A stretch of 64,000 nt of DNA, from NCBI GenBank assembly GCA_034521595.1, contig JAXHMG010000003.1:1-64000 (forward strand). Reading direction: 5' to 3'. This stretch comes from Gemmatimonadota bacterium (GTDB taxonomy: Bacteria > Gemmatimonadota > Gemmatimonadetes > Longimicrobiales > Gaopeijiaceae). Made by a program: the position numbers and the translations under genes. Shown here one piece after another: positions 606-35,443 of the stretch. The first letter of the stretch is position 1, and every line of letters begins with the position of its first letter. Below the pieces are notes generated by a model that saw only the letters and a program-made list of their open reading frames with translations, had not been told where the DNA came from and made no database searches.

Positions 606-632
606 GCCGCGGAGCCGGCAACATGCTTGTTA
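606..632 (-). repeat. Partial attC-like site (right-hand end only)
   Basis: ggccgcggagccggcaacatgcttgtta matches the repeat tail. The following gttatgagacgtcgccc is inverted to gggcgatgtctcataac ending at 1536. Confidence 0.75.
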
Positions 633-670
633 TGAGACGTCGCCCCCACCGCCTCGTTTCCCAGCAATCC

Positions 671-1247
671 TCAACGTTCTGGTGCCTCTGGACCGGACCT
701 TCTCAGCACCGAGTCCCATTCGGCTTGGAGTCCGAGCTCAGCGACCGATTTATCGAGATAAGCCCGATCCAACTGATCCCTACGCTGCTCTAGCATTCGA
801 ACGACGTCCGCTCGTTGAAGCTCGGAATCTCCCATCCGGGCCCACTCGAGCTTTGCGATCAGCACGTCCTCAAGACTCGCCAATGAGACTTCGATACCGA
901 GCAGATCAGCACGCTCGCGACGCTCGAATTCGGTTCTACTGAAGGAGCGATCCTTTCGGACGATCAGGTCGATCTTCCATCCCGATTCCGGATCGATCGC
1001 GTTGAACTGACCTTGCGTACGCCACGCATCGAGGGCGGCGTCCCGATCGACGTAGAGGCCGGCGTCCAAGAACCCCTGGACCAGCTTGTCCAGCCCCTGG
1101 TTCCTGGGTATCGATGACCACGTCGATATCCTGCGTGGCGCGAGGCGTGGCATAGTAGGCTGCAGCGAGTGAACCCGTGAGCATGTAGGGTACGCCAGCG
1201 CTTTCAAGAATTTCAGCGACCCGTTGCAGGAAGGAAGTGATGCTCAC
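671..1247 (-). CDS. Nucleotidyltransferase-fold toxin (MenT/Rv0078A-like), frameshifted
   Basis: VPYMLTGSLAAAYYATPRATQDIDVVID motif, then FNAID..KIDLIV..SLEDVLIAKLEW in a second frame. Confidence 0.7.
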
Positions 1248-1475
1248 TTCTCGGTGGGCAACTCGATCCCGTAGTCCTCCGCCACGAGTCGAGCGACAAC
1301 CTCCCGGGAGCTGAGTCAGGATGTCTGGCTCGCAGCCCAGCGAGACGGATCTCCCGGACCGTATCACTGAGTTCCAGGGCTGCCCGCAGGCGTGCCGGAC
1401 CATCCATTCGGTCCAAGACGGCATTGTACCTGGTCCATGCTTCCGGGTCGGTATCCAGGGGGCGTGAGGATCATG
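1240..1475 (-). CDS. Small antitoxin-like protein (Rv0078B/MenA1-like)
   Basis: RPLDTDPEAW..RMDGPARLRAALELSDTVREIRLAGLRARHP, upstream of the NTase; start uncertain. Confidence 0.55.
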
Positions 1476-1532
1476 CTCAAGATCTTAAACCCGCCAACAG
1501 GTACCTGCATGTACCGCACGGGCGATGTCTCA

Positions 1533-1681
1533 TAACGTTCAGATGTTTCCGACGTGGCCCCAGCACAGTCGGCTCACAGACTGGCCCCAGTCGGACACGC
1601 GCCACTCCGTTCACACGCGAAATCCTCCGGGCCATGTCGGTCGGAGCGACCGCAGGGAGCGGAGCCGGCAACACGTTGTTA
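1533..1681 (-). repeat. attC-like site
   Basis: taacgttcagatgtttccgacgtggccc...ggccatgtcggtcggagcgaccgcagggagcggagccggcaacacgttgtta. Confidence 0.9.
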
Positions 1682-1759
1682 TAGGACGTGGACTCGTCGA
1701 CGATCCTCCTGATCGATCCCGAAGAACACCCCATCCCCTCCGAACCTCCTTCAAAGAAA

Positions 1760-1960
1760 GCGACAGGCTTCTGAGCTCGGCTCCTTCGGCACGTGCAACC
1801 TGCTCCTCTTCGCACTCGGTGCAGAGGCCGTGGGTGACGTCCGTATCTCCCACCTTCTTCAGGTATGCACTGATGCCTTCCCATATCCCATTCTCCGTTT
1901 GGATGCGACCGCGGAAGGTCGAAGGCCGGGAGCCCGCACAGGCGTTGTTATCCGCTGCGC
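1760..1960 (-). pseudogene. C-terminal remnant of the PAS-domain cassette protein (paralog of 29120-29664)
   Basis: GRIQTENGIWEGISAYLKKVGDTDVTHGLCTEC is nearly identical to the C-terminus of the 29120 ORF. Confidence 0.7.
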
Positions 1961-2106
1961 CAAAGCCGGTCGCATATCGTCGGTTTGCGCAGGCTCCCCA
2001 AGACATCTCGTCGTGTCCCTGATCGATCGCTCGTGCAACCCGTGGCTCTACTCCGAGTCACGTGCGAGACGTCAGTGCCGTCTTCATGTCCTTCTCCCGC
2101 GTTCCC

Positions 2107-3220
2107 TCAGGCCGTGGGAAGGGCCACGCGGAACTCTGCTCCGCGACCAGGCCTGCTCTCGACCGATATCGAGCCACCATGGGCCTCGGCAATCGACTTG
2201 CAAATGTAGAGGCCGAGGCCGAGCCCGCGCTTCGGGTCCTCATCGGCTTTCCGGAATCGCTCGAAGACATGCGGCAGGTCCTCTGGCTTGATGCCCGGAC
2301 CGCTGTTCCGCACGACGAGCACGACCTCCCCTTCGTGGTCCTCGGCGCACAACTCTACCACCCCGCCGATCGGCGTGAACTTCAACGCGTTGCCCAGAAG
2401 GTTCGAGAGCAACTGAACGACTCGGTCGTGATCGAAGCGAACGAGCACTTCACCCGTCGGCAACTCGACGTGGAAGCGGATCCCCCGGTTCGCGAAAATC
2501 GGTCGATAGGAGTGCAGCACTTCGGATAGCAGGGCGCCAACATCGTGGATGTCCTTGGTGACCCGAAGCGCTCCCGTCTCGATGCGCACCACGTCCATCA
2601 GATCCTCCAGGAGGCGTCCCATGCGGGTCGCCGCGCCCAGGATATCCTCGGCCGCCTCGCGCGTTGCATCTTCCTTCGTATCTTCCAGCAGGAGGGTCGA
2701 ATTCGCAGCGATCACGGTGAGTGGGCTTCGAAGATCATGCGTGACGATTTCCAGCAGCTCATGCCTACGCTCGAGGGCGGCCAGGGAAAGGTCTGACCCG
2801 GTCCGCTCCTTGGCCAGACTCGCATTGGTTTCACCCCGCTGCGCCTTCCGTTCGTCGCGCTCCTCATCCAACTCCCGCTGCTTCGCCGCCGAGCGCGCAT
2901 CCACCCGACCCCGCTCGCGCTCGAGCAGGGCGTCGGAAGCCTCGCGCTCAGCCTGAATGCTCTCGTCCGCGCTTTCACGCTCGTGTTCCACACCCCGGCT
3001 TGCGGGCGGGGAAGCGAGGCGATCCAGTTCGATCAGGCGATCCGCCTTCTCGCGGAACTTGAACAGGCGGTCGTCTGCGAGGAAGCGGTCGAGTTCAATG
3101 AGTTTGTCGAGGCGACGTCGCACCTCGTCGGTGACCGCATCCGCTCCGGTGCGTTCCGCATCCAGGCTCGCATCGGTCCGCTCGCGATCCTCCGTGTGGT
3201 TCTCTGCCGTTTTTTCTCAA
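2107..3220 (-). CDS. Sensor histidine kinase (HisKA + HATPase)
   Basis: H-box VTHDLRSPL, N-box NLLGNALKFT, G-boxes NSGPGI and GLGLGLYI. Start is inferred near 3220 across a homopolymer frameshift. Confidence 0.9.
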
Positions 3221-3455
3221 TTCGTACCTCCGGGGCTTAGCCGGACACGATTGATCAATCGGACGATCGCGATCGCGATCGACGGGTAAGGTGGAACTGG
3301 GAAGGCTCGCGAGGGTTCGGCGGAGCAAGTCGTCGTTGATCGATAGCGTCATCGGTATCCTCTGAAGATATCGGTACATTGACGGCTTACGGGACCGATC
3401 CGCAATCTCCCGTTTCCTCGTCGGCCCGTTCACCCGTCGACGAGTCCATGTTCGA

Positions 3456-3467
3456 TAACCGTTGTTA
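3456..3467 (-). repeat. Collapsed attC-like site (TAAC-CGTT-GTTA)
   Basis: Preceded by cgacgagtccatgttcga, the same cassette end that precedes the full site at 29765. Confidence 0.65.
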
Positions 3468-3599
3468 TACGCAGTGGCGCAGCACCCTTCCCGCTCGCAC
3501 TGAACCCCTTCATCATTCTCTGCGAAGCTCGGTCAATTCTCGAATACGAGCCAAGGTCCGAGAGATCAGACCCGGAATGCGCTCTGCATCGGGCAACGC

Positions 3600-4108
3600 A
3601 CCCTGGATCGCGAACGTCCTGGACAAGCTGCCGAAGCGGCTGCAGGGGGCGGCGAAGGACGCGCTGCGGGAGATCATGAACGCGCCGACGCGTGCGGACG
3701 CCGAGGCGGGGATCGACCGCTTCGAGGCCGACTACGGAGCGAAGTACCCGAAGGCGGTCACCTCGCTGCGTCGCGACCAGGACAAGCTCCTGACGTTCTA
3801 CGACTTCCCGGCCGAGCACTGGAAGCACATCCGCACGACGAACCCGATCGAGTCGACGTTCGCGACGGTCCGGCTACGGCAGCGGATCACGAAGGGGCCG
3901 GGCTCGAGGAAGCGAGGCCTCACGATGGCCTTCAAGCTGATCCAGATGGCCCAGGACCGATGGAGAAGGCTGAACGCGCCGCACCTCCTCCCGCTCGTGC
4001 GGGCAGGCGTTCAGTTCAGCGATGGAGAGCAGGTCGAGCGGGAGGACAACGACGAACGGAAGGTCGCCGCCTGATCACGTCCCCATCCACAACTTTTGAC
4101 AATACCTC
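3600..4108 (+). mobile_element. IS256-family transposase, C-terminal remnant with right end
   Basis: LLTFYDFPAEHWKHIRTTNPIESTFATVRLR; end sequence atccacaacttttgacaatacctc. Confidence 0.85.
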
Positions 4109-4242
4109 GCGGCCAGTTCAGTAGGGCAAATCCCGCCAGTAAGACCAACGTGATCCAGGTGATCCAATGTCCAATGCGTGTCATGTCACGACCCTCCCAG
4201 AGAGGAATTTGTGTTCGGGTCCAGCTCGGACGCGGCTGCCGG

Positions 4243-5539
4243 CTACACCCCCTGGCCCGGGAGCAGGAAGGTCGCGGCCATCAGCGTGACCGTCAGTACC
4301 AGGCCGAGCCACGGCAGCCAGCGAGGGGTGTCGAACGGCGCCTCTGGCTCACGTCGCTCGAGCCGGATCAGGGCGAGGTTCGAGGTGGCGAAGATGATGA
4401 GCATGATGAAGCTCGTGATCGCCGCCAGGCGCTCCAGCGGCAGCGCGACCGCCAGGAGCAGCGCGATCGCGGCCGCGGCGACGGTGCCTGCGGCCGGGGT
4501 GTTGGTCCGCGACCAGATCCGCGCCAGCGGTCCCGGTGCGGCACCGCGCTGGCCGAGGTCATACATCACGCGCGACGCCATGATGATCTGCGCGAGTGCG
4601 CCGTTCAGGACGATCCAGAGGCTGAGCACCGCGACCGACCATCCCGGGATCCCCGTGCCCTCGATGGCAGCGACCAACGGCGCGGGTGAGGCCTGCAGCT
4701 CGTCGGGCGTCGCGAGCGACAGGGCGGCGGCGGCCACGATGACGTAGAGGACCAGGGCGATCCCGATGGCGCCGGCGATGGCCCTGGGCAGGTTCCGGGC
4801 GGGACGCCGGACCTCCTCGGCCATGTGCACCATGTCCTCGAATCCGATGAAGGCGTAGATGGCCAGGAAGGTCGCGGAGGCCACCCCGATCAGGACGGGC
4901 AGGTCGGTGAGCGGCGGTGCCGCCTCCAGGACGCGCAACGGTTGAGCCGCAGGGCTGAAGATCGCCGCTCCGACCACGAGGAGCAGACCGAGCATGCCGA
5001 GTCCGGTGGTGGTGGCCATGAACCATGGCGGACTGCTTGGCGCCCAGGATCGCGATGGTGGCGAGCGTGGTCAGCAGGGCCGTGTGGACGAGGGGGTCGG
5101 GGACGTCGACGAAGGTCGAGAGGTAGCCGGCGAACCCGGTCGTGATGGTCGCGGCCGAGACGACCCCGGTGGCGACGATCGCCCACCCGATGGAGACCGA
5201 GAGCCAGCGCAGATCGAAGGCGGTGCTGACGTAGGCGGTCGGGCCACCGGCACGGGGCAGCCGCGTCGACAGTTCCGCGTAGGCCATCCCGTTGAACATC
5301 GCCACGCTGGCGGCGAGCAGGAACGCCAACGGCGCCCAGTACCCGGCGATGCCGGCGATCTCGCCGATCAGCACGTAGATGCCGGCGCCGAGGATCGTGC
5401 CCGCGCCGTAGATGGTCAGCAGCCCAGCCCCGATCTCCCGGGCCAGTCCGTTCTCACGACGGATGTCGTCACCGTCGGGGGTCGTCATCTCGCCTCCGTC
5501 GGACCGGTCGGTCCTCGCCCCCCGGGGCCGATCGGACAT
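4243..5539 (-). CDS. APC-family amino acid permease (frameshift near 5020)
   Basis: GAGTILGAGIYVL, YAELSTRLPRAGG, YAFIGFED, AEEVRRP motifs. Confidence 0.85.
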
Positions 5540-5939
5540 GTTGCGCGCCCAGCATCCCGGTGGCAGGATCGCTCAGGGACTCGGGGGTCGACCACACGAC
5601 AACGGTCTTCGAGGACCTACGAGCGAGCAGTCGTTCGAGCTCGAGCTCGGACGTGCCGGGTCGAAGCCGCGCGGGCGGGCTATCGGGGTGGTCGGCGTGC
5701 TCCGACTCCGTGGCCATCGTGTCGGCGCAGCTCAGCTTGATCCCGATCCCGGCCGTGCTCGCGCGTTGTTACCGGCGACGCTGCTCGGCCACCGGTCTCC
5801 TCCCGGCTGAAGGGCTGGGGAGCGCCGGACGTCCTGGCTGCGCTGGCATCGACGCCGTTGGCGCTGCTCGCCGTCGGTGCGGTCGTCGTGGCGATGGTGC
5901 CCCTGGTGGCGGCGGACCTCCCGGAGCTCACGGAGTCGG

Positions 5940-6125
5940 CCACCCACGGTATCGAACAGATCGAGCGGGGGTTGTCGCGAATCTGCTCGCCGAGGGAAGG
6001 CCGATCCCCGTCATGGACGCTCTGATCGTAGCCCGGCGCTCCAGCATTCCGAGCCGATCGTCACCCGTGACGCGGAGCAGCACTTTGGCCGCATCGACGG
6101 GCTTGTCGTGCTCGACCATCGGGCG
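5940..6125 (+). pseudogene. PIN-domain (VapC-like) fragment
   Basis: LLAEGRPIPVMDALIVA...PIVTRDAEQHFGRIDGL across two frames. Confidence 0.55.
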
Positions 6126-6142
6126 CGGTGGGCCGGAGCACG

Positions 6143-6799
6143 TCACAAGGTACTCGGTGGCAGCAACCCGCCAGTGCGTAGCCCCTCGTACTCGTCGAGG
6201 CGTTTCGCCGCCTCGGCCTGCGACTTCGGCGGCGGGATGATCACGCGGCTGCCGATCAGATCGTTCTCCGGCCAGTTCGCGGGCACCGCGACGCCGTTGT
6301 CGTCGGCGGTAATGAGCGCGTTCGTCGCGCGGACGATCTCGTCCATGTTGCGGCCGATCTCCTGCGGGTAGTAGAGCGTCAATCTGACCTTACCCTTTGG
6401 ATCGACGATGAAGACCGCACGTACGGTGTTCGTGCCCTTGCCCGGGTGCAGCATGCCGAGCTTGTCCGCGATCGTGTCGTTGCGCCGCGATCACCGGGAA
6501 GGTGATCTCCACGTCGAGCTTCTCCTTGATCCACTCGATCCACTTGATGTGGCTGAACACCTGGTCGACCGACATAACCGATCGAGCTTCACGCCCATCT
6601 CCTCGAACTGCTTCATCCGGTTCTGAAAGCCGACGAACTCGGTCGTGCAGACCGGGGTGAAGTCGGCGGGGTGGCTGAACACAATAAACCAGTTGCCCTT
6701 CATGTCACCCGGCAGGTTCATCTCGCCGTGGGTCGTTGTGACGGTCATCTCGGGGAAATCGTCGCCAAGCAGCGGCATGTTTGTTGTTCTCTCGCTCAT
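6143..6799 (-). CDS. Peroxiredoxin (Prx6/AhpC type), frameshifted
   Basis: [39 protein letters not shown] across three frames. Confidence 0.9.
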
Positions 6800-6864
6800 A
6801 TGAAATCCTTGTCGTTTGGGTATAAGCATCGTTGGGGCAGCGCGTCCGTGACCGGAGGAGATGT

Positions 6865-7033
6865 AATGCGGAGGCTGGCCCGAGCGAGCAGTTGGCGTAC
6901 TCCGCGGGGCGGGACACTCTGGGATTTGCGGGAGCCCAGCAGTTCCCACCCGAACAGGAGAACGCCGATGGATAGGTATATCGGGCTGGATCCGCATGCG
7001 TCAAGCTGCACGCTGGGGGTGTTGACGCCGAAC
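6865..7033 (+). mobile_element. IS110-family 5' remnant (left noncoding end plus transposase start at 6968)
   Basis: [19 protein letters not shown] is the typical IS110 DEDD N-terminus; cut off by an IS21 end at 7034. Confidence 0.6.
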
Positions 7034-10572
<3,539 letters not shown>

Positions 10573-10589
10573 GGGTGCGTACGGGTGTC

Positions 10590-10843
10590 CCTGGACACGT
10601 GTACACGACGAACGCGATCGAGGCGATGAACGCCCAGCTCCGGAAGGTGACCAAGAAGCGCGGCGCGTTCCCGAACCCCGAGGCGGTGCGGAAAGTGCTC
10701 TATCTCGCCATCATGAAAGCGAGTGAGCGATGGACCCGGCCCGTACAGGACTGGCCCGCCGCGCTGAACCACTTCGCGCTGGCGTTCCCGGACCGCGTTC
10801 CGGCGTGATGAAGCGGCCATTTACACAGAAAATCTGACAGGCC
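10590..10843 (+). mobile_element. IS256-family C-terminal remnant with right end
   Basis: VYTTNAIEAMNAQLRKVTKKRGAFPN..VRKVLYLA; end sequence atttacacagaaaatctgacaggcc. Confidence 0.85.
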
Positions 10844-10899
10844 GACCGTTTCACCACTGCTCCTTCAGCCGCAAGGCTCGTCCTTCATCTCCTTCGATG

Positions 10900-11675
10900 A
10901 CCATCCGATGCCTCACGAAACTTTAAACGCCCTGAAATCGACGGGCCAGCACGAGCATCTGGAACGCGAGCATGGCCGTAAGGGCGAGTGCCACGACCGT
11001 CGCGGCGGATTCACTTTTCACGTCCTTCAGTGCGTCGGCGAACAATTCGGCGAAAGACGATCCAGATCATCGCGCCGGCCGGCAAGCCCCAACCCGATGG
11101 GCAGAAAGGGGCGGAACGTCTCGGCGAAGAGAGTAGGGCAGGCGCGGTCACGATCCGGTCGCGGCAGGCCCCGCCGAGAACCGCCCGCAGCGCGGCCTGC
11201 CAGACGGGCGCGCGCCGCGTGCACCAGAACCAGCGCGATGGCAAGCCCCTCAGGCACGTTGTGAAGAGCAATCGCGGTGGTGATGAAGACGCCCAGCGCC
11301 TTCCGCTGCCGGCAAAGGGCACGCCGACACCGACGCCCTCGGCGAAGGAGTGCGCCGTCATGATCGCCAAGGATCAGCAGGGCCTTGGTGGCGTTCGCGC
11401 CCTGCAGACTCGTGCGACATCAACGTCCCCGGACTTCGCCAGCAGCCGGTACGGCCGCAACTATGGCGCCAACCCCGGTCGACACGCCAACGAGCAGTCA
11501 GCTTGATGTCGATGCGAACGCCCTCGGCGATCGGGCTGTGGCTTGCGGCGAGCGTCAGGCCCGCAGCTGCGGCGTTTGACCAACTGATCGTGCGCTTGCC
11601 AGGTCTTCCGCACAAGATAGAAGGCAGCGTGCCGATGGCAGTCACTACTGCCGTGGAGATGTCACCGATGCACAA
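10900..11675 (-). pseudogene. ZIP-family metal transporter, fragmented
   Basis: IMTAHSFAEGVGVGV and PEGLAIALVL motifs in different frames. Confidence 0.7.
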
Positions 11676-11910
11676 CCGAGAAACACGTTTTTTTCCATAA
11701 CAGGCGCGATAGTTTTTGCATGTTGCAGTTGGTTGCTGCAGTAATCGGCGGCTACCCCGTTGTCAATCAATTTGAGATGCTCTTTGCTTGGCGGCTGTCC
11801 ATGCGTCCGAGGAGGCTTCCAGGCGTCGAAGAAGCCTACTTTCCACCTGAGTCGAGCGATTGTCGGTCGCACCTTCGAGCCAGTCGGCCCGGTCAGCCGG
11901 GGCCTGCTAG

Positions 11911-12720
11911 GGCCTGTTAACACTATCGGGGTGATTGGTTATCTTCATGTATGACCATCACCGAAGAACAGTATCAGCGCATCGAGTGGTGTTTCCCGAA
12001 GCAGCGGGGCAACGTCAAGGTCTCGAACCTGGACGTTCTCAACGCCATCCTCTACGTCGCTGAGCACGGATGCAAATGGCGCGGGATCCCTGAGCGATTC
12101 GGGAACTGGCATACGATCTACACCCGGATGAACCGGTGGGCGAAGGACGGAGTGCTGGACCGTATTTTCACGGCCCTGCAGGAAGAGCAGATCATCCAGA
12201 TCAAGATCGAGGCCCTGTCGATGGACAGCTCGATCGTGAAGGTGCACCCCGATGGAACGGGCGCGGAAAAAAAAACGGCCCGCAAGCCATCGGCAAATCG
12301 AGGGGCGGATGGACCACCAAGATTCATCTGGTTGCCGCAGATGCTCGAAGGGCAGTGACGTTCTCGCTTTCGCCAGGCCAAAACCATGATGCTCCCGAGG
12401 GTCGCGAGCTGCTGCGGAGCCTGCCGCCGCCCGACGAGCCCGTGGCCCTCATCATGGATCGCGCGTACGAGGGCGACAAGACCCGCCAGCTGGCCCTGGA
12501 CCTGGGCTACGTCCCTGTCGTGCCACCGAAGACGAACCGCCTGCACCCCTGGAGCCTCAACGAGGCGCTCTATCGTCGCAGGAACGAGATCGAGCGCTTG
12601 TTCCGGCGACTCAAGGGTTTCCGTAGGATCTTCTCGCGCTTCGACAAGCTCGACGTCATGTTCATCGCCTTCATCCATTTCGCCCTGATCGTCGAGGCCC
12701 TTCGATAGTGTTAACAGGCT
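11911..12720 (+). mobile_element. IS5-family (IS427-like) element, two-ORF transposase 11951-12708
   Basis: Inverted repeats ggcctgttaacacta/tagtgttaacaggct flanked by CTAG. A-run frameshift site near 12267; motifs DSSIVKVH, MDRAYEGD, RNEIERLFRRLK. Confidence 0.93.
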
Positions 12721-22246: not shown

Positions 22247-22250
22247 CGGA

Positions 22251-23523: not shown

Positions 23524-23672
23524 TAACGTTCAGATGTTTCCGACGTGGCCACCACCGAAACATCCGAGTGACCTGCCCGAGCATACGGTGCGATCTGCTC
23601 CCGCGCCACGATAGCCTGAAGGCCATGTAGGGGGAGCGAGCGCAGCGAGCGGACCCAGAAACATACTTGTTA
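23524..23672 (-). repeat. attC-like site
   Basis: taacgttcagatgtttccgacgtggcc...ggccatgtagggggagcgagcgcagcgagcggacccagaaacatacttgtta. Confidence 0.92.
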
Positions 23673-24088: not shown

Positions 24089-24238
24089 TAACGTTCAGAT
24101 GTTTCCGACGTGGCCATCACCGGCCGGTCCACGCGAACCTGCTCGAGAATACGCTGCACCTCGTTCCCGGGCCACACTCGTCTGAAGGCCATGTAGGTGG
24201 AGCGGGCGAAGCCCGCGGAACCGGAAACATTCTTGTTA
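24089..24238 (-). repeat. attC-like site
   Basis: taacgttcagatgtttccgacgtggcc...ggccatgtaggtggagcgggcgaagcccgcggaaccggaaacattcttgtta. Confidence 0.92.
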
Positions 24239-24357
24239 TCGGAAGTCGGGCCGCGCTTCCAGGTTCAGCCTGGTAATCGCTCGAATCAGCTTCTCCGAAT
24301 TTCTCTAGACCCCGACCTCGCGCTCACAGTGTCCTTGAGGTTCCTACCGGGTCAAAC

Positions 24358-25070: not shown

Positions 25071-25154
25071 GACGTCCTCGCCTGACGACCCACAACCCAC
25101 CAAATCGATGGTCGAACCCGTCCGCTAACTCCCGAACCCAGGCCCGATTTCCGA

Positions 25155-25305
25155 TAACGTTCTTGTGTTGCCGACGTGGCCCACCACCAGCGGGCTCACA
25201 AATCGGCTACCGGGGAATACGCGCCACCCCGTTCTCGCGCTATAAACGTCTCGGGCCATGTAGGTCGGAGCGAACGAAGTGAGCGGAGCCGGCAACACTT
25301 TGTTA
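25155..25305 (-). repeat. attC-like site (variant arms gtgttgccg/cggcaacac)
   Basis: taacgttcttgtgttgccgacgtggccc...ggagccggcaacactttgtta. Confidence 0.92.
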
Positions 25306-25402
25306 TCTGATGTGCACTCCGCCGCTCTTCGACTCTGCCACCTCCGGCGTTCCGCGCGGATCACTGTACCGAAGAAACGAAAGAAGGGGGCATCGCGATC
25401 TT

Positions 25403-27702: not shown

Positions 27703-27879
27703 GGATGGCTGGAGCATAGCCCCCGGTCACGGGGCCGTTTAGTAAGCGGCGATATCGGCAGAAGTGAGCGGGAGTTCCCCAGACCTATCTGTGGCAAATG
27801 GGGGACTCTCGCTTGCTTCAATAGGCATAGCCATAGAAGGATAAGCAGTACAATCGGACCCCAAGGAGTGCATTTCAGA

Positions 27880-28033
27880 TAACGTTCAGATGTTTCCGAC
27901 GTGGCCCAGCACGGATCCTGCCGACCGTGTCTACCCGTCATGAATACGGCTTAGGCGCTCACCCCGCCACACCCGTTCCGGGCCATGTAGGCCGGAGCGC
28001 CCGCAGGGCGCGGAGCCGGAAACATACTTGTTA
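27880..28033 (-). repeat. attC-like site
   Basis: taacgttcagatgtttccgacgtggccc...ggccatgtaggccggagcgcccgcagggcgcggagccggaaacatacttgtta. Confidence 0.92.
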
Positions 28034-28099
28034 TGTGATGGTGAGCCACGTTCCCCCTCCGGCACCGAGGTCATCGCTCCCGTCCGCGAACCCCTATTC

Positions 28100-28742: not shown

Positions 28743-28877
28743 GACCGGAATGTGCCGATCGGTGGGGTAGGGGTCAACGAAATCCTCCGTCCGTGCACCT
28801 GATCCGGGTTCCGCCACTTCCAGAGTCCCGTGTTTCCCGAACCTGCCGGCAGTCCACGATCCAGGCTCACTTTCACA

Positions 28878-29034
28878 TAACGTCTTCTTGTGTTGCCGAC
28901 GTGGCCCATCACCAGATGGCTCACAAACCGGCTGAACGAGGATGCGCGGCACCTCGTTGCCGCGCCACAACAGCTCAGGGCCATGTAGGTCGGAGCGGAC
29001 GCGCAGCGGCCGCGGAGCCGGCAACACTTTGTTA
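28878..29034 (-). repeat. attC-like site (variant arms)
   Basis: taacgtcttcttgtgttgccgacgtggccc...ggagccggcaacactttgtta. Confidence 0.9.
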
Positions 29035-29119
29035 TCGGACGTGGACTCGTCGACGATCCTCCCGATCGATCCCGAAGAACACCCCGTCCCCTCCGGGCCC
29101 CTTCAGGAAAGCGAAGGAG

Positions 29120-29664: not shown

Positions 29665-29764
29665 AGTATCCTCTTGAGGTACCGATACGTTGACGGCTCA
29701 CGAAGCGACCCGCAATCCTTCGTTTCCTCGTCGGCCCGTCCACCGTCGACGAGTCCATGTTCGA

Positions 29765-29915
29765 TAACGTTCAGATGTTTCCGACGTGGCCCCAGCATAT
29801 GCGCTCATCTTTCCTGAGACCTTCGGAGTGCAGCTGACAGCTTACGATGCCCGAACGCTCGAGGCCATGTAGGTCGGAGCGAACGAAGTGAGCGGAGCCG
29901 GAAACATTCTTGTTA
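29765..29915 (-). repeat. attC-like site
   Basis: taacgttcagatgtttccgacgtggccc...ggagcgaacgaagtgagcggagccggaaacattcttgtta. Confidence 0.92.
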
Positions 29916-30905
29916 TCTGACGTGGCGCCCAACCGCCGGGATCCCCGTCCAAATAGCAAGCTTCAACTGAGATGGCACGGGAAGTAGATCCAACTCGCGG
30001 ACCAGAAAATCCATGATCGTTCCGTGCTGGAGCAATTCCACTCCCGGAACCTGAGTGTCCCTATATGGACGCTTCGCCGTGGAAAACAGATACACCGTCC
30101 CGGACTCGGCCATTGGAGCGAAACTGGCAGGGTCCAACGTCTTGGTCTTCCCGGACTTCACCTGTACGTAACCAGTTAGCGTCCCATCAGTCGACCTCTT
30201 TCGCAGGATGCACTCAGTATCTCGCTGGCTCCGGTAGGTAGACGACTTGATGATTCGCCACCCCAGATCCTGTTGTAAATAGAGGCATACCAAGTCTTCG
30301 ATCTCATCGGCGTCGAGAACTGAGAAGATTTCGGTGGCAGCGCGACTGCGCAGAGCCTCCGAAAGGCGCACGCGAGTCTCGGCGGTCAACCCCCGCGAAA
30401 TTGACGAACTGTCTCCGAAGACGACCGCTGAATAGGCGCACCACTCTTGATCCTGAGTAATCTTCTGCGCAGTGCCATACATCGTCAGTTTACGACGAAC
30501 GATTCCGGGGACTAGGACCTCGTCTACTTCGCGCCATTCTGCTCGGCGCACATTGTGGATGTCGTGATCCCTCCATTCTGTCCCGTCGCGGTACTCCCAA
30601 TCACCGAGGATCTTGGCGATGAAGTACTTCCCGCGTCGGTAGAGCCAAACATGATCGCCGATCGCCGCACGGTTCGCTATCACGTTCATGCCCACCGGAA
30701 ACCTTCCACCTCGTTCGGCCTTGAACGCCTGCCGCACCAGTCGCCCCTCCAGGGGAGGATTCTCGAAGCGCCACCCGATGCCGATTAACCCTTGCCCCAT
30801 ACAGAATGCGAACGAGTCCGCCTCCGGGTCGGCCTTTCCTCGCGGATCGATTGTGAGCTTCCACAACGATCGTGGTATCGAAGGGATCACTGGTGTGTCA
30901 GTCAT
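29913..30905 (-). CDS. Mrr-like restriction endonuclease (putative)
   Basis: N-terminal IGIGW..IGDHVW..GDWEY..VRRAEW domain; C-terminal EDLV..YLQ..GW..VQVKSG. Its TAA stop is part of the site's TAAC. Confidence 0.7.
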   Translation of the reverse strand: MTDTPVIPSIPRSLWKLTIDPRGKADPEADSFAFCMGQGLIGIGWRFENPPLEGRLVRQAFKAERGGRFPVGMNVIANRAAIGDHVWLYRRGKYFIAKILGDWEYRDGTEWRDHDIHNVRRAEWREVDEVLVPGIVRRKLTMYGTAQKITQDQEWCAYSAVVFGDSSSISRGLTAETRVRLSEALRSRAATEIFSVLDADEIEDLVCLYLQQDLGWRIIKSSTYRSQRDTECILRKRSTDGTLTGYVQVKSGKTKTLDPASFAPMAESGTVYLFSTAKRPYRDTQVPGVELLQHGTIMDFLVRELDLLPVPSQLKLAIWTGIPAVGRHVR

Positions 30906-30922
30906 GTTCGAGCCATGTCAGA

Positions 30923-31077
30923 TAACGTTCAGATGTTTCCGACGTGGCCCGACCACGGGTCCTGCCGACGGTGTCTACCGGTCATGAATACGGCTTAGGC
31001 GCTCACCCCGCCACACCTGTTCCGGGCCATGTAGGCCGGAGCGCCCGCAGGGCGCGGAGCCGGCAACATACTTGTTA
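30923..31077 (-). repeat. attC-like site
   Basis: taacgttcagatgtttccgacgtggccc...ggagcgcccgcagggcgcggagccggcaacatacttgtta. Confidence 0.92.
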
Positions 31078-31163
31078 TAGGAAGTTGAGCCACGCTCGCA
31101 GGTTCAGTCAGCCGACCGAGCCCTCCCGCTGGAATATATGCCTCTTGTGACATATACTACTCT

Positions 31164-31849: not shown

Positions 31850-31921
31850 CTCCTTTACAGGGGATCCAACCCAATCACGGAGCCTACCCGCTCTAATCCC
31901 GAACCTGGGCTCAATTTCCTA

Positions 31922-32076
31922 TAACGTTCAGATGTTGCCGACGTGGCCCACCACCGCTCCCGGGGGAGCCGGCCACCCGTCATGAATACGGCTTAGGCGC
32001 TCACCCCGCCACACCCGTTCCGGGCCATGTAGGCCGGAGCGCCCGCAGGGCGCGGAGCCGGCAACATACTTTGTTA
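31922..32076 (-). repeat. attC-like site
   Basis: taacgttcagatgttgccgacgtggccc...ggagccggcaacatactttgtta. Confidence 0.92.
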
Positions 32077-32539
32077 GCGGATGTTGGCGTCCTGTGGTCC
32101 ACGAAACACTTACGGTCGACGTCACGAGGAACGTCGCGTCGACGGCTATCCGTTCCGGTGGTTCGACCCCAAACGGAAACCCCGCGGACACACGGTCGAG
32201 GGATCGCGCGAAGGGAGCCCAGGGAGCGAGCAGACCGAAGGTGTAACCCCAGCCGACCGAAGATGCCTCGGAGCGGGTGAACGCGCGATTCACCAAAACC
32301 TCTTTGGCGCCGTCGACGAAGAACCTGCCGGGTGGACATCGCAGCCGTGGATCGAGCCCGCCCGACTGTGTGGAGCCACACGGGGGGAGGGACAGCGGCG
32401 AATCCATAGGGTGGTGGGCGTGACTCGGGCCGAAGGTGCGAACCCAACTGACCGTAGATGCCTCGGACGAAGTCACTGCACGAGAACCTGAACGCGTCGC
32501 CGCTGTCCTCGAACCTGACCATCCATGGCCAATGTCCGC
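32077..32539. other. ORF-less cassette with internal 38-bp direct repeat, possible structured RNA
   Basis: Copies at 32235-32272 and 32430-32467 (32/38 identical); no recognisable protein. Confidence 0.55.
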
Positions 32540-32691
32540 TAACGTTCAGATGTTTCCGACGTGGCCCACCACCGCTCCCTCCGGAGCCGGCCGCCCGTCA
32601 TGAATACGGCTTAGGCGCTCACCCCGCCACACCCGATCCGGGCCATGTAGGGGAGCGAGCGCAGCGAGCGGACCCGGAAACATTCTTGTTA
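32540..32691 (-). repeat. attC-like site of the first cassette
   Basis: taacgttcagatgtttccgacgtggccc...ggagcgagcgcagcgagcggacccggaaacattcttgtta. Confidence 0.92.
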
Positions 32692-32770
32692 TGGGACGTG
32701 TGTTGTCGCTCGGCGAGTCACCATGCTCCCCGCTCCACAAGAGCATGACCACGATTCCCTTACGGCTTGG

Positions 32771-33961
32771 TTAGTTCCAACATGACCACCGCCGGCACGT
32801 CGAGCTCATTGAGGCGAACAGCCAAGATGTGCGTATCCGTGATGTCGAGCAGAGCGTGACGTACCCTGGCAGTTCGACCCATCCTTGTAGCGTCCCGTCA
32901 CGAGTAATGACACGCCATCTGTCCGGGGGTTGGATGGGAAGGCCGTACTGGCCCAGCCACACGTTACCGACCCTATCTACATGGAAACCGTCCCAGTAGG
33001 GCAAAGGCCCGTCATGTCGATCCAGGCCTTCCTCCAGTCTTGCGATCTCAGCGTTGATGAAGGCCTCTTCGGCACCGCGGGCGGCGTAGGCCTCGCGGTA
33101 GGCTTGCGCCATATCCTGCTCCCAATCCGGAGTCAACGGAAACGGCTGCTCCTCCCAATGCGCGACCTGCAGCAGACGCCCCGAACTGTCGTACCAAGTG
33201 ACTTCCGGACGATCCGAACGTGCCCAGGCAAACCCGTCGGCAAACCCTCCCGCGCGACCCTTGACCGAAATGGGTCCAGGCCCTGCTCCGCGGGTCCCGT
33301 ACCACCGTCTGAGATGAGGCAACTCGGCCAAGGTATCCGTTTCGGCCTCGACGAGATCAGTAATGAGGATCGGCTGCATCTCGAAAACCCATTCGGGCCG
33401 CATTTCAGATACCCCGCTGTAGCCGTCTCCGGGTACGAGAAGAACACGCCCGTCAGCAAATGCAGATGAGGCGTAGTGGAGGAAGCTGCCCGGAAGGGGC
33501 TCAGTGGCCACTACTTCTCCCTCCCTCGAGAGGACCGTGATTCGCCGGAGCCTCCCGTCCGTCACAATGACTGAGTCGCCTTGCAAGATCAGCGCATCAA
33601 GGCCCTGATACTCCCCGGGACCTTCTCCCTTGCGGCCCCATACCTCCAGCACTGTCCCGTCGGGGGCGAGCCGATAGATCTTCCCTTCGCCGTACTCACC
33701 GATGAGTGCCCCACCATCCGGCATGATCTGGCCTGACTGCACCCAGGTGAACGTCGGATCACCAGCCGCCCAACCGAGTGAGAAAAGAGGCTCCGAATTG
33801 GCGGTCCACTCCGCCGAGCCCGGCGTACCATTCTGCACAATGCGGATACCCGACGAATCGGTCACCACGGCCTCGGCGCGGCCAGCGGTTTGTGCCTCTG
33901 GTCCACATGCCGACCCTAGGAGACTGAGAACCAGTGCTCCCGCTAGCTTCGGACTCTTCAA
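32771..33961 (-). CDS. Secreted beta-propeller lipoprotein (first cassette; probable frameshift near C-terminus)
   Basis: Lipobox GSAC, DSSGIRIVQN, WGRKGEGPGEY. Confidence 0.8.
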   Translation of the reverse strand: MKSPKLAGALVLSLLGSACGPEAQTAGRAEAVVTDSSGIRIVQNGTPGSAEWTANSEPLFSLGWAAGDPTFTWVQSGQIMPDGGALIGEYGEGKIYRLAPDGTVLEVWGRKGEGPGEYQGLDALILQGDSVIVTDGRLRRITVLSREGEVVATEPLPGSFLHYASSAFADGRVLLVPGDGYSGVSEMRPEWVFEMQPILITDLVEAETDTLAELPHLRRWYGTRGAGPGPISVKGRAGGFADGFAWARSDRPEVTWYDSSGRLLQVAHWEEQPFPLTPDWEQDMAQAYREAYAARGAEEAFINAEIARLEEGLDRHDGPLPYWDGFHVDRVGNVWLGQYGLPIQPPDRWRVITRDGTLQGWVELPGYVTLCSTSRIRTSWLFASMSSTCRRWSCWN

Positions 33962-34024
33962 TGGGGAAGCCTCCAGCTCAGTGATAGGTCAAACCCGGGA
34001 TCCGACCCAACAACACATGTCCCA

Positions 34025-34110
34025 TAACTGTTTATTTCCGAATCAACGTGTCGGGTTGCCCCGTTGGGGGCGTGGGGTTTCCGACGTTGATGGTCCCGTG
34101 GATAACAGGC
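34025..34110 (-). other. Candidate attI-like primary recombination site
   Basis: The first cassette end (catgtcccataac) is followed by non-repeat sequence; identity with the 21410 copy stops exactly at TAAC. Confidence 0.7.
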
Positions 34111-34258
34111 TGCTCGATCCACGCGGTCCGGCCTCTGCGGCCTGCCTCGGTCGCGCCCGCCACTCGGCCCGCTCGGCATCTCGACCCGGCCGACTGTGTC
34201 CAACGTTCGCTACCTCGTCCGCGAGCGCAAGCGACAGCCGGCGCTGATCTCACGGCTC

Positions 34259-35443
34259 TCATTCCAGGTTGTCGAGCGGACTTCTGAGGGTTTCGAGCGT
34301 CGACTGGGCGACATGGGTGTAGACCTGGGTGGTTCGGGCGCTTTTGTGGCCGAGGAGCTCCTGGATGACCCGGAGGTTGGTGCCGCCCTCGAGGAGGTGG
34401 GTGGCAAAGCTGTGACGGAGGGTGTGGGCCGTCACTCGCTTTTGGAGTCCGGCGGCCTCGGCTGCCTGCTGGACGATGCGTTGGACGGACCGGGTCGTCA
34501 GGTGGCTTTCGGGCGTGCTGCCGGGGAAGAGCCACGGTCCGGTGGGGTAGGCGTCACGGTAGATTTGTACGGCCTCGACTGCGCGCCGTGCCAGCAGGGT
34601 GTACCGGTCCTTGCCGCCCTTGCCGCGGCGTACCCGTAACAGGCCGCGTTCCACGTCGAGGTCTTCGGGGGTGAGGCGGACGAGCTCGCTCACCCGCAGG
34701 CCGGCGCTGTAGAGCAGCATGAGCAGGGCTCGGTGCTTGGAGTTGCGAGGCTTCTGCAGGATGCGGGCGACCTCGTCCGGGGCGAGCACGGTGGGGAGGG
34801 GCCGGTCCTTCCTGGGTCTGGGGATCCGGAGGGCGACTCTGGGCCGACCGAGCACGGATTCGCAGAGGAACCGGAGCGCGCTCACGACCTGATTCTGGTA
34901 GCTCTTCGAGATCCCTTGGCCGCGGACCAGGGAAAGTAGGTACGTCTGAGCCTCTTTCCCCGGGTCGGACGGGAGGCTGGGGACGCCTCCACCGCACCAC
35001 TCCAGGAATCTGCGGATCTGTCCCAGATAAACCTTGCGGGTCTTGGGGCTGTACCCCCGGAGGTCGAGGGCTCTACGGACCCGCTCGAGGATCTCGTCCG
35101 GCGCTTCGGTGGTGGGTGGTCGCGTCGGCTCGTGTCGTCGAACGTCACGCTTTTCGTCGGGATCGGGACGGTCGAGGGAGTCGGTGCCTCCGGGCGGTTC
35201 CGGGGATGGGGCGGTGCGGTCGTCGATGACCCAGACCTGCTTCGGGCCGACCGCGCGTTGGAGCGCGGCGATGGCCGCGTCCGCGTGCGGCGCGCTCCAG
35301 ATGCCGCGGTCCGGTCGGAATTCCCGGCCGGGTAGCGCGCGGACGGCGGCGAGTGCGGGAGCGAAGTGTGAACGCCCCAACTTGATGAGAACGCGGTCTT
35401 CCCCGGGGACGACGCGAACGGTGACGGCGGGATCCGTGGCCAT
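34259..35443 (-). CDS. Tyrosine recombinase/integrase (SAM-like + catalytic domain, N-terminal HARP-like extension), lacks the IntI insertion
   Basis: GLRVSE (R), GKGGKDR (K), HTLRHSFATH (HxxR), LLGH, VYTH (Y), C-terminal SPLD. Confidence 0.95.
   Translation of the reverse strand: MATDPAVTVRVVPGEDRVLIKLGRSHFAPALAAVRALPGREFRPDRGIWSAPHADAAIAALQRAVGPKQVWVIDDRTAPSPEPPGGTDSLDRPDPDEKRDVRRHEPTRPPTTEAPDEILERVRRALDLRGYSPKTRKVYLGQIRRFLEWCGGGVPSLPSDPGKEAQTYLLSLVRGQGISKSYQNQVVSALRFLCESVLGRPRVALRIPRPRKDRPLPTVLAPDEVARILQKPRNSKHRALLMLLYSAGLRVSELVRLTPEDLDVERGLLRVRRGKGGKDRYTLLARRAVEAVQIYRDAYPTGPWLFPGSTPESHLTTRSVQRIVQQAAEAAGLQKRVTAHTLRHSFATHLLEGGTNLRVIQELLGHKSARTTQVYTHVAQSTLETLRSPLDNLE

Follow-up and report, generated by a model that had tools for sequence, protein, structure and literature searches.

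Is an array of gene cassettes beside a tyrosine recombinase that is not a canonical IntI served by that recombinase, and what kind of system would the two then form? The question is raised by the window, i.e., the whole 64,000-nt stretch of a Gemmatimonadota contig that was analysed. The minus strand carries the recombinase gene, attI and all of the cassettes. A cassette comprises one gene or a toxin-antitoxin pair and a terminal site of ~157 nt, and the recombinase gene is flanked by the array on one side and by a PhoD gene followed by his genes on the other. The recombinase and its surroundings comprise:

34259..35443, minus strand: gene for an IntI-like tyrosine recombinase in which the IntI insertion is missing (ATG at 35443, 394 aa)
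35210..35440, minus strand: HARP-like domain (P0001 residues 7-83; strand-strand-helix-strand-strand-helix-strand; pLDDT 87-95)
34262..35101, minus strand: core-binding (SAM-like) and catalytic domains (GKGGKDR-HTLRH spacing 66 residues; C-terminal end SPLDNLE)
34029..34258, minus strand: attI region (identity with the internal cassette copy stops exactly here; motif kept in relatives)

The recombinase is IntI-like, with a HARP domain at its N-terminus and no IntI insertion. Its open frame reaches a GTG at 35458 (34259-35458, minus strand; 399 aa), the ATG at 35443 being the likely start. The top NCBIfam match is TIGR02249, the integron integrase family; it scores 213.5 bits (cut-off 265) and is split in two, leaving profile positions 175-234 unmatched. 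NF040815 scores 210.1 bits, and the protein stays below the cut-off of every Xer model. The best solved relative is VchIntIA (2a3v; E 6.4e-45), with recombinase residues 123-292 and 318-397 aligned to chain residues 5-172 and 240-319, which leaves 25 residues at the insertion compared to 67 in VchIntIA (~42 fewer); XerA (4a8e) aligns in a single stretch. According to PMC4889954, which cites Messier and Roy 2001, the insertion absent here is needed for IntI activity. Exactly 19 residues (ARRAVEAVQIYRDAYPTGP) separate GKGGKDRYTLL from WLFP, and an SPLD motif at the C-terminus is common to the recombinase and integron integrases. In an alignment of 22 homologues, R255, K280, R348, H371 and Y380 do not vary and H345 is conserved to at least 90%; by our own assignment, these six are the candidate R-K-H-R-H-Y set. 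An earlier note on this DNA had described a non-IntI recombinase with 19 residues in this interval and intact R-K-H-R-H-Y residues, and the alignments and the TIGR02249 score agree with it; its expectation that IntI/attC-based detection would probably miss the system holds for the integrase side, because the score is below the cut-off.

HARP is a fork and junction binder in annealing helicases. The Pfam HARP model matches weakly in 12 of 22 N-termini of recombinase relatives (best E 0.0011), and a profile of the N-terminal domain retrieves 2897 representatives at E<=0.001. Among the 150 matches listed for this profile, 18 representatives were scanned for Pfam families: 12 proved to be tyrosine recombinases, in which the module is present in 1-4 copies, four proved to be SNF2 helicases, of which three have Pfam HARP above the cut-off, and two are without any Pfam family. 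Weak Foldseek matches were obtained with the N-terminal domains of XPB and UvsW and with the HARP domain of SMARCAL1 (E 0.04-0.3; Z 3.4-5.3). Judged by the profile comparisons, the N-terminal module is homologous to the HARP of SNF2 helicases; in SMARCAL1-type annealing helicases it is fused to the motor, whereas here it is fused to a recombinase.

Sites were called by pairing a left motif (26 nt, at most 5 mismatches) with a right motif (15 nt, at most 3 mismatches). The 14 matches of the left motif (1534 to 32541) are all on the plus strand, with 0 on the minus strand; the right motif is matched 19 times on the plus strand below 35 kb, 17 at sites and two elsewhere (18976, 23965); reversed-pattern controls gave 0 matches in the whole genome. 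There are 14 complete sites (155-162 nt, ~157), two near-complete, one partial and one collapsed, all in one orientation, which matches the 16 near-complete, one partial and one collapsed that had been counted before. All are given on the plus strand, the proposed folding 'bottom' strand:

32532..32699, plus strand: attC-like site, complete; placed at 32537 by motif pairing
31914..32084, plus strand: attC-like site, complete; placed at 31919 by motif pairing
30915..31085, plus strand: attC-like site, complete; placed at 30920 by motif pairing
29757..29923, plus strand: attC-like site, complete; placed at 29762 by motif pairing
28870..29042, plus strand: attC-like site, left arm variant, complete; placed at 28876 by motif pairing
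27872..28041, plus strand: attC-like site, complete; placed at 27877 by motif pairing
25147..25313, plus strand: attC-like site, compensatory G-C change in L box, complete; placed at 25152 by motif pairing
24081..24246, plus strand: attC-like site, complete; placed at 24086 by motif pairing
23516..23680, plus strand: attC-like site, complete; placed at 23521 by motif pairing
22596..22764, plus strand: attC-like site, complete; placed at 22601 by motif pairing
21402..21566, plus strand: attC-like site, complete; placed at 21407 by motif pairing
17541..17709, plus strand: attC-like site, complete; placed at 17546 by motif pairing
16608..16754, plus strand: attC-like site without the left ~15 nt (left R box gone), near-complete
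15556..15726, plus strand: attC-like site without the right GTTAT box, near-complete
14260..14428, plus strand: attC-like site, complete; placed at 14265 by motif pairing
1525..1689, plus strand: attC-like site, complete; placed at 1530 by motif pairing
606..640, plus strand: partial site, of which the right end is left; 12/12 pairing of its GTTATGAGACGT box with the left box at 1525
~1921-1955, plus strand: collapsed site remnant, from reading the sequence

In the fold of the site, an R stem (AAC/GTT; at most 12 bp in the cognate form) is followed by a small asymmetric internal loop and then by an L stem that runs for 8-11 bp without interruption, and the tip is branched and variable; R and L stems were present in the minimum-energy fold of 4/4 foldings, which covered three sites. 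Folding energies are similar for both strands and a few kcal/mol below those of mononucleotide shuffles. The plus strand is proposed as the folded one because every conserved wobble pair is G.T on it and, as the energies of the two strands are alike, it is the wobble pairs alone that decide the choice.

The last array junction is at 34028/34029 and the recombinase stop codon at 34259-34261, leaving the gap of 230 nt that the earlier note had given as approximate. The attI lies ~170-230 nt below the stop codon, with a conserved core at ~34029-34086 that reads CGTCGGAAACCCC..GACAC..TTCGGAAATAAACA on the minus strand, followed by the crossover G|TTAT. A 134-nt identity with an internal cassette terminates exactly at CATAAC; among 18 relatives compared, 13 keep ..GACAC..AATAAC.A|GTTA below the stop codon, the contig of one relative (L019) terminates at GAGTTA, and Bacillota relatives have TTCGTAAATAAGAC|GTTAT-type cores with sequences diverging beyond. 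As far as the compared sequences go, attI is conserved and the design is recurrent across phyla. The two ends of a cassette pair 12/12 in 13/15 cassettes, compared to 0/14 in-array sites and 27/256 of all box combinations; across 13 relatives, cognate ends are paired at 8/9 or better in 28/79 cases versus 6/93 in-array. Read on the cassette strand, the crossover that these box pairings fix is G|TT (AA|C for the plus strand), and by the same pairings each cassette must formerly have had a complete site of its own, i.e., have passed through a circular form.

Cassettes might also be exchanged by ordinary double-stranded recombination at R-L half-sites, in the manner of Xer at dif, with palindromy as a by-product and no folded strand. 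Strong sequence conservation of the R and L boxes within the array, an L stem without an extrahelical base in a site whose strands fold equally well, and the resemblance of attI to the L'-R' half of the site (CGGAAACA-TTCTT-GTTAT versus CGGAAATA-AACA-GTTAT) would all agree with this. However, pairing rather than sequence is kept (two-sided, pair-keeping changes in 7/33 pairs of the consensus fold), sites of different phyla have architecture and spacer asymmetry in common but not sequence, the wobble pairs are G.T on one strand, cognate R stems reach 12 bp, and a fork-binding domain is fused to the enzyme; we consider double-stranded exchange improbable and retain a folded strand as the preferred substrate.

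The contents of the cassettes are typical for chromosomal integrons, and the array is interrupted in places:

32700..34028, minus strand: cassette 1, 396-aa predicted lipoprotein (32771-33961) with no Pfam family
31164-31849, plus strand: Gp49/HTH in a cassette
28100-29027, minus strand: HepT/MNT in a cassette
24358-24912, minus strand: SnoaL-like protein in a cassette
22854..23515, minus strand: Phd/ParE toxin-antitoxin cassette
18834..21197, minus strand: IS21-type insertion in the older copy of cassette 1 (IstB at 18937-19710)
16870-17477, plus strand: HigB/HTH in a cassette
14511-15532, plus strand: DUF6932/HTH in a cassette
1960..14259, no strand assigned: IS-rich stretch of ~12 kb without cassette structure, breaking up the array

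Cassette 1 is a paralogue of the IS21-broken internal cassette at 17710-21413; the copies are 95-99% identical, which fits a recent insertion at attI. Paralogues of cassettes 1 and 3 occupy positions 12 and 14, the intervening cassettes being different, which points to cassette turnover. The IS-rich stretch contains a histidine kinase, a Mutator-family fragment, a frameshifted amino-acid permease, AhpC, an IS3 with an ALIL frameshift element (7496-7612), and IstB plus DDE fragments. Such damage, together with the loss of the R box from two sites, could mean that the enzyme is a decayed integron integrase whose insertion was deleted and that the array is a frozen fossil without cassette exchange; no recombination event was seen in the assembled contigs, and joints with sides of 20-46 nt could stem from repeats or other organisms. 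Against decay stand the recent-looking copy next to attI, an intact frame with invariant candidate catalytic residues, and the relatives themselves. Between GKGxKDR and HxLRH, a spacing of 66 residues is seen in 59 of 64 measurable locus proteins from several phyla (both motifs found in 64/80; the other five gave 67, 68, 70, 70 and a false motif match at 344), whereas canonical Gemmatimonadota IntIs have 107-108 in 10/12, counted to the first HxxRH match behind the GKG motif (L094 and L098 give -122, the first match not lying behind it), and the two Xer proteins of the window's genome 70-72. In the tree, the window's protein belongs to a well-supported clade (100*, 14 rows) separate from the canonical IntI clade (100*). 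A fossil is thus very unlikely in our judgement, and a maintained enzyme without the insertion is preferred.

Homologues of the recombinase in Gemmatimonadota, Bacillota and other phyla are accompanied by hairpin-site arrays and direct repeats on the downstream side only. A family-agnostic hairpin scan gave 95 matches in 284 kb downstream and 12 in 618 kb upstream (shuffled controls: 6 and 10), with a spacer asymmetry of +2 to +4 in 85/95; at least two matches were present in 19/31 loci with at least 3 kb downstream versus 3/66 upstream, and 6 of these 31 relatives had 0 matches. In 23/80 loci the contig breaks off no more than 350 nt downstream of the gene, compared to 2/80 upstream. The linkage of homologues to arrays, on which the earlier note had staked its reading, is therefore seen in several phyla, and the genome gave 0 matches above the cut-off for a canonical IntI, so that the true intI elsewhere which would have told against the note's reading was not found. 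The assembly is 93.25% complete and the array runs across a contig break, however, so that a canonical intI may sit in unassembled DNA, and the array might be an orphan (CALIN) whose IntI is there or has been lost, the neighbouring recombinase being unrelated, Xer-like or transposon-associated, and present by chance. Canonical IntIs are common in the phylum (above the cut-off in 125/301 genomes) and occur alongside the short form in 3/14 short-form Gemmatimonadota genomes (G267, G179, G086), a fourth (G224) having a partial match above the cut-off (278 bits, profile positions 90-314); satellite clusters of the same sites lie at about 1.01 Mb and 1.51 Mb, away from any recombinase; and Cury et al. 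2016 judged recombinases without intI_Cterm beside attC sites not to be integron integrases. An orphan would not account for the recurrence of this protein family with co-oriented downstream arrays, nor for a conserved attI directly below its stop codon. Furthermore, the canonical sites of Gemmatimonadota have a different sequence, with two extra bases breaking the L stem, a scan tuned to uninterrupted L stems had 0 matches at five canonical loci, and among the 46 genomes of the window's own family, 2 have a canonical IntI versus 8 with the short form. We regard an orphan array as highly improbable and take the array to belong to its neighbour.

Compared with canonical integrons, of which one from Gemmatimonadota was read (locus L104), especially sedentary chromosomal ones with the integrase co-oriented with the array, the system is alike in a same-lineage tyrosine recombinase by attI, a crossover at G|TT, one-gene or toxin-antitoxin cassettes whose terminal site is an imperfect palindrome containing R and L boxes, chimeric in-array sites with cognate cassette ends, duplicated cassettes, IS insertions and satellite sites elsewhere in the genome. 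It differs in the missing ~40-residue insertion (spacing 66 versus 107), in an enzyme under the TIGR02249 cut-off with an N-terminal HARP domain, and in a longer spacer on the L'-R' side of the sites. Xer recombinases (XerC/D, archaeal XerA) are likewise simple tyrosine recombinases without the insertion and, according to PMC3442271, can integrate CTX phage DNA at dif as a folded single strand, by exchange of one pair of strands; the gene here, however, is accessory (14/301 genomes of the phylum), heads a cassette array and encodes a HARP domain, in a genome with two other Xer-like genes. The closest plasmid-borne core relatives, IS91-associated tyrosine recombinases (41-43% identity over residues ~110-399), are without the N-terminal HARP domain, and their gene adjoins an IS91 transposase, unlike the array/PhoD setting here; L101, used in this comparison, is on a long branch and its place in the tree is uncertain. 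Because the best family match and nearest solved relative are integron integrases, SPLD is shared, and canonical IntIs branch among the short-form proteins in the tree (with a poorly supported backbone), the systems look related by descent; the earlier description of a distinct, possibly convergent system stands as regards distinctness, but convergent origin is not favoured.

In the mechanism that we propose, the enzyme would excise cassettes through site x site recombination and insert them at attI, the site reacting as a folded single strand, presumably the plus strand, as it does in integrons and when Xer integrates CTX phage DNA; a single strand would be exchanged and replication would resolve the product. 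In canonical integrons, structure is recognized by the I2 insertion and extrahelical bases, a role that the HARP domain may fill here. A literature search found no description of such a HARP-fused, insertion-less integron system. It is quite likely that the locus represents a sedentary chromosomal gene-cassette platform, integron-like and operated by another branch of the integron-integrase lineage, and a second kind of integron, in which the array is paired with a HARP-fused recombinase, probably exists.

Judged from its sequence, the array of the window is an integron-like platform, and its recombinase is of the integron-integrase lineage and fails the defining test of that lineage; the earlier note, which had proposed an integron-like system with a non-IntI recombinase, is upheld in this interpretation. 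The ~157-nt repeat occupies positions 606-32699 of the window. Its left motif (26 nt) has 14 matches on the + strand and none on the - strand, its right motif (15 nt) falls at 17 site positions, and reversed-pattern controls of the motifs gave no matches genome-wide. Motif pairing yields 14 complete sites, with a mean column identity of 76% in their alignment. The remaining sites and the contents of a 12-kb IS-rich block that interrupts the array are as follows.

606-640, + strand, right-end fragment of a site (motif pairing)
~1921-1955, + strand, remnant of a collapsed site (read in the sequence)
15556-15726, + strand, site without the right GTTAT box (motif pairing)
16608-16754, + strand, site without the left ~15 nt (motif pairing)
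2107-3123, histidine kinase in the IS-rich block
4243-5539, frameshifted amino-acid permease in the IS-rich block
7090-8474, IS3-family element in the IS-rich block
7496-7612, ALIL frameshift pseudoknot of the IS3 element (Rfam, 108.6 bits)
IS-rich block, fragments of Mutator, IS21 and DDE transposases

The earlier note had described this array accurately (16 near-complete sites, one partial and one collapsed, all in one orientation), and its distance of ~230 bp between array and recombinase agrees with a stop codon 230 nt from the last array junction. An Rfam scan of the window matched the ALIL element alone, and the sites were covered by no family.

The sites fit the attC pattern, being imperfect palindromes with R''/R' (AAC/GTT) and L''/L' boxes in a single orientation. 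Their consensus fold has an R stem of 5 bp (TAACG/TGTTA) followed by an asymmetric internal loop, an L stem of 8 bp (ATGTTTCC/GGAAACAT), two positions of which show compensatory A-T to G-C changes, and another stem (ACGTGGCC/GGCCATGT) bearing a side hairpin that likewise covaries. Two-sided changes that keep the pair occur in 7 of the 33 pairs of this fold in sites that share ancestry, so the covariation supports the predicted fold and falls short of proof. Four foldings with DNA parameters, covering three sites, all contain the R and L stems; the folding energies of the two site strands are similar and lie a few kcal/mol under those of mononucleotide shuffles. All conserved wobble pairs (in the R stem, the extended cognate R stem and the ACGTGGCC/GGCCATGT stem) are G.T on the + strand in all complete sites, e.g., 29757-29923, and would be A/C mismatches on the other strand; they are the only hint to which strand folds, possibly the + strand. 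The L stem of the window sites is 8-11 bp long without extrahelical bases, and the sites differ from canonical ones in that the interrupted L stem is absent. A canonical array of the phylum (L104; G271:C9:685000-704999; 9985-19957) resembles that of the window in having at least 14 co-oriented sites downstream of intI, but these sites are of another sequence and their L stem is broken by two extra bases, whereas that of the window is unbroken; a scan for uninterrupted L stems gave no matches at five canonical loci.

When 12 nt were read at both ends of each inter-site interval, the right box of a site paired with the left box of its successor at 12/12 positions in 13 of the 15 cassettes (with one constant T.G wobble), compared with 0/14 for the two boxes of one in-array site and 27/256 among all box combinations. 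Rare box variants also travel together (GTTAGC with GCTAAC, GTTAAC with GTTAAC, and ..CGCC.. with ..GGCG..). The cognate ends and the co-travelling variants show that every cassette once had its own complete site, and they place the crossover at G|TT of the cassette strand, a combination that is the hallmark of integron cassettes. A first hairpin scan that demanded a perfect 6-bp R box was passed by only three sites of the window, the in-array sites being chimeric, and the R-box rule was then eased to 5/6. In 13 relatives, where the data are noisier and some sites were missed, cassette ends were cognate at 8/9 or better in 28/79, and the boxes of in-array sites in 6/93.

Cassette 1 (32700-34028), which adjoins attI, is a 95.4-99.1% copy of a cassette at 17549-21416 that is split by a 2364-nt IS21-type insertion, and cassette 3 duplicates the one at 15556-16625 (90.5%). 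The cassettes lying between the two duplicate pairs differ, a pattern in keeping with movement cassette by cassette and not with a single duplicated segment. The cassettes carry five toxin-antitoxin-like pairs, a SnoaL-like protein, a lipoprotein and unknowns. The array was also compared with the public assembled contigs of four runs, material that cannot reveal rare excision or circle forms. Joints that skip cassettes or go back were distrusted, their sides of 20-46 nt being near the assembler word size, and a loose end at 34028 (GTTCAGATGTT) is accounted for by an internal paralogue at 21413. In run X3, from a second study, contig depth was higher over site bins, an indication that sites of this type are common in that run, although depths sum over organisms.

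The attI region lies at 34029-34258 (-). Positions 33895-34028 are 100% identical to 21280-21413, and the identity stops exactly after CATAAC, past which the internal copy enters a site and the copy beside the recombinase gene enters unique DNA. The 360 nt below the stop codon were compared in 18 Gemmatimonadota relatives, 13 of which share an attI core, CGTCG.AAACCC..GACAC..AATAAC.A, then GTTA, and diverge afterwards; one contig (L019) stops at GAGTTA. The core is like the L'-R' half of a site. Bacillota versions of attI are clade-specific, e.g., TTCGTAAATAAGAC|GTTAT in Paenibacillus, and divergence again begins directly after GTTA. The integron criteria of an attI beside the integrase gene, a G|TT crossover and cognate cassette ends describe what is found at the window locus.

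The recombinase (34259-35443, - strand; 394 aa) is a tyrosine recombinase with a SAM-like core-binding domain (PF00589, 146.8 bits; PF13495, 53.5 bits). Its best NCBIfam family is that of the integron integrases, TIGR02249, with 213.5 bits, below the cut-off of 265; it also stays below the cut-offs of NF011946 (145.9 vs. 435) and of the XerC (192.8 vs. 335), XerD (188.8 vs. 330) and XerA (210.1 vs. 220) models. In TIGR02249 and IntegronFinder, IntI is defined by an additional domain of ~35 residues near patch III, the I2 helix. Three comparisons agree that this domain is absent from the window recombinase. The TIGR02249 match of the genome search is split in two, covering profile positions 1-174 and 235-315 and leaving 175-234 unmatched. 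The match to the best solved relative, the Vibrio integron integrase 2a3v (VchIntIA; E 6.4e-45), is split as well, 25 residues standing opposite 67 in a stretch of 2a3v that reportedly contains the I2 helix, contacting extrahelical bases. The distance from GKGxKDR to HxxRH, finally, is 66 residues, set against 70 and 72 in the two Xer proteins of the genome and 107-108 in 10 of 12 canonical Gemmatimonadota IntIs; L094 and L098 were excluded from the canonical spacing, their value of -122 coming from a match ahead of the GKG motif. The 19 aa that the earlier note had counted between GKGGKDRYTLL and WLFP are exact. A canonical IntI printed in full (L092) has the ALGVKYP-type motif. The C-terminus of the window recombinase, SPLDNLE, resembles the SPLD/SPAD tails of canonical IntIs. 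Among 22 homologues R255, K280, R348, H371 and Y380 are invariant and H345 is conserved in at least 90%, and we assign these six residues as candidate catalytic positions. On one side the gene is flanked by a PhoD gene and histidine-synthesis genes and on the other by the array, and no IS91-family transposase is adjacent; a promoter scan of 33800-35700 gave no sigma-70-like sites.

Residues 7-83 of the recombinase are predicted with high confidence to fold as strand-strand-helix-strand-strand-helix-strand. This N-terminus has no Pfam match in the window protein; those of 12 of 22 relatives match Pfam HARP (PF07443) weakly, with a best E of 0.0011. At E<=0.001 a profile built from the 22 N-termini matched 2897 cluster representatives, and in many of them the module stands in 2-4 tandem copies. 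Eighteen of 150 listed representatives were scanned with Pfam and comprise 12 tyrosine recombinases with the N-terminal module, four SNF2 helicases and two proteins without a Pfam family; three of the four helicases have HARP over the cut-off, and SNF2 proteins of this kind are matched by the N-terminal profile at E 1e-15 to 1e-18. Foldseek and VIA-align searches with the N-terminal model gave nothing at E<=0.001 and a best Z of 5.4, in the range that VIA-align deems common; the weak matches (Foldseek E 0.04-0.3, Z 3.4-5.3) were the N-terminal domains of XPB and UvsW and the HARP of SMARCAL1. Since the fold searches gave weak matches only, the assignment is based on sequence profiles, by which homology of the N-terminal domain to HARP appears clear. 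HARP binds forks and junctions.

The genome (3.49 Mb in three contigs, 93.25% complete) has two Xer-like genes as the sole others found besides the window recombinase, and no protein over the TIGR02249 cut-off in this 93.25% complete assembly; the earlier note had named a true intI elsewhere that acts on the sites as refuting its interpretation. Homologues with names put the genome in Gemmatimonadota, close to Longimicrobiales. Contig C3 begins with the 64 kb of the window, and the array extends past the left end of the window into G000:C1:1-8000 (L112), where at least three further sites lie on the reverse strand, so that the array exceeds 20 sites and crosses a contig break. Satellite sites far from any recombinase, all on the + strand, occur on the same contig (G000:C3) at ~968 kb, 1012-1027 kb (L113), 1450 kb and 1503-1521 kb (L111), as two clusters of about three sites each and single sites; they resemble the orphan attC clusters (CALIN) of ordinary integrons.

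Within the phylum, canonical IntI over the TIGR02249 cut-off is present in 125 of 301 sampled genomes, mostly of families f4 and f5, and the short form without the insertion (profile E<=1e-70) in 14 of 301, mostly in the family of the window (8/46 plus its own genome). These tallies include four unpublished genomes (G097, G182, G157 and G057), on which no conclusion depends; L087, a canonical sequence used in the spacing comparison and the tree, comes from G097. Both forms are clearly together in three genomes (G267, G179 and G086), and in G224 short-form-like copies accompany a canonical match that is partial but over the cut-off. At six places of G224:C1 there are near-identical copies of a 297-aa core relative without the N-terminal domain, a pattern that suggests a mobile element in several copies, perhaps an IS91-associated one. 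Many canonical intI genes among the matches listed have their 3' side ~200 nt from a contig end.

Relatives of the recombinase occur in several phyla. More than 100 full-length homologues at ~60% identity were listed, and a scan of species genomes found 580 stretches encoding a relative, the best 80 of which were taken as loci. In this set of the best 80, the 66-residue spacing is kept in 59 of the 64 proteins with both motifs, the other five giving 67, 68, 70, 70 and one false motif match, and a contig end lies within 350 nt downstream of the gene at 23/80 loci and upstream at 2/80; arrays of diverged repeats tend to end assembly contigs. Direct repeats number at least nine downstream and none upstream at L007, L016, L020, L050, L054, L057, L060 and L073, 9-19 downstream and 2-5 upstream at L021, L081 and L085, and 4-8 downstream and none upstream at L031, L042 and L048; neither side has any at L010 and L043, and L015, L033 and L045 have none downstream and 2-4 positions upstream. 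A hairpin scan independent of family gave 95 matches in 284 kb downstream and 12 in 618 kb upstream, with 6 and 10 in shuffled loci, and in 85 of the 95 the L'-R' spacer exceeds the R''-L'' spacer by 2-4 nt. Where at least 3 kb lie downstream (31 loci), two or more hairpin matches were obtained at 19 loci and none at six; upstream, 3 of 66 loci have two or more. In Paenibacillus and Proteiniborus the sites read TATAAC-5 nt-L box ... L box-7/8 nt-GTTAT. The link between homologues and arrays that the earlier note had asked to be tested is found in several phyla, with direct repeats and hairpin sites mostly downstream of the gene.

A tree of 94 rows was obtained by a quick maximum-likelihood search and rooted on the Xers of the genome; it left out five of the 80 locus proteins, which had fewer than 290 residues or were without the HxLRH motif. 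The window recombinase falls in a Gemmatimonadota clade (support 100*). All 14 canonical IntIs group together (100*) on a long branch, and their clade is placed among the short proteins. Descent of the short family and canonical IntI from a common stock appears clear in this tree; because the search was quick and backbone supports are 87-92, we make no claim on the order of events between them. On a 15-kb plasmid of Chondrinema litorale (NZ_CP111070.1; L102, 6870-14900) a relative that includes the N-terminal region (33% identity over residues 37-399) is followed by cassette-like genes (GNAT, sigma factor, SDR and HipA) and a group II intron, and this locus may be a mobile version of the window system. 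Two further relatives (L068 and L080; 37-41% identity) lie on contigs of Micrarchaeota and Halobacteria metagenome bins.

Both the definition of integrons and the searches for them depend on the IntI-specific insertion, regarded as indispensable. In the full-text papers searched, no description was found of a recombinase without the insertion, or with a fused HARP domain, at the head of a cassette array. The nearest prior notice is a statement by Smyshlyaev et al. 2021 (PMC8138268) that the insertion is "not fully conserved" in an integron-like subgroup, made there with no link to arrays. The part of Cury et al. 2016 (PMC4889954) that treats such proteins counts 18,808 PF00589 matches without intI_Cterm, 50 of them beside an attC site and 21 of these 50 in genomes without IntI, and argues that these recombinases are not integron integrases. 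According to the survey sections of the IntegronFinder 2.0 paper (PMC9024848), Bacillota are nearly without integrons, Firmicutes having one complete integron and a few CALIN, and a review passage (PMC8618304) counts Gemmatimonadota among the integron-bearing phyla. For Archaea, a preprint (10.1101/2022.02.06.479319) gives six detected IntIs and, in a figure legend, 75 integron-bearing genomes; the relatives in archaeal bins are of interest because most reported archaeal integron arrays are without detectable IntI.

The platform would work like an integron yet lie outside the current definition, its activity and single-strand chemistry being deduced from DNA and protein comparisons. The chances seem to us evenly balanced that there is a second class of integrons, ancient and widespread, whose IntI-like recombinases are fused to HARP and lack the insertion. 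This class would occur in Gemmatimonadota, Bacillota and further phyla in which integrons are held to be rare, and would read folded sites through a fork-binding domain and not through the I2 helix and extrahelical bases; canonical IntI may be an offshoot of it that acquired the insertion and shed HARP. In that case an integrase has been overlooked for many arrays filed as CALIN, some of them in Archaea and Bacillota. Both kinds coexist in Gemmatimonadota with different site types, and their cross-reactivity is directly testable. If the platform works, it would extend the range known for cassette-based gene capture, account for part of the "integrase-less" arrays, offer a natural experiment in how a tyrosine recombinase reads folded DNA without an I2 helix, and bear on the origin of integrons from Xer-like enzymes.
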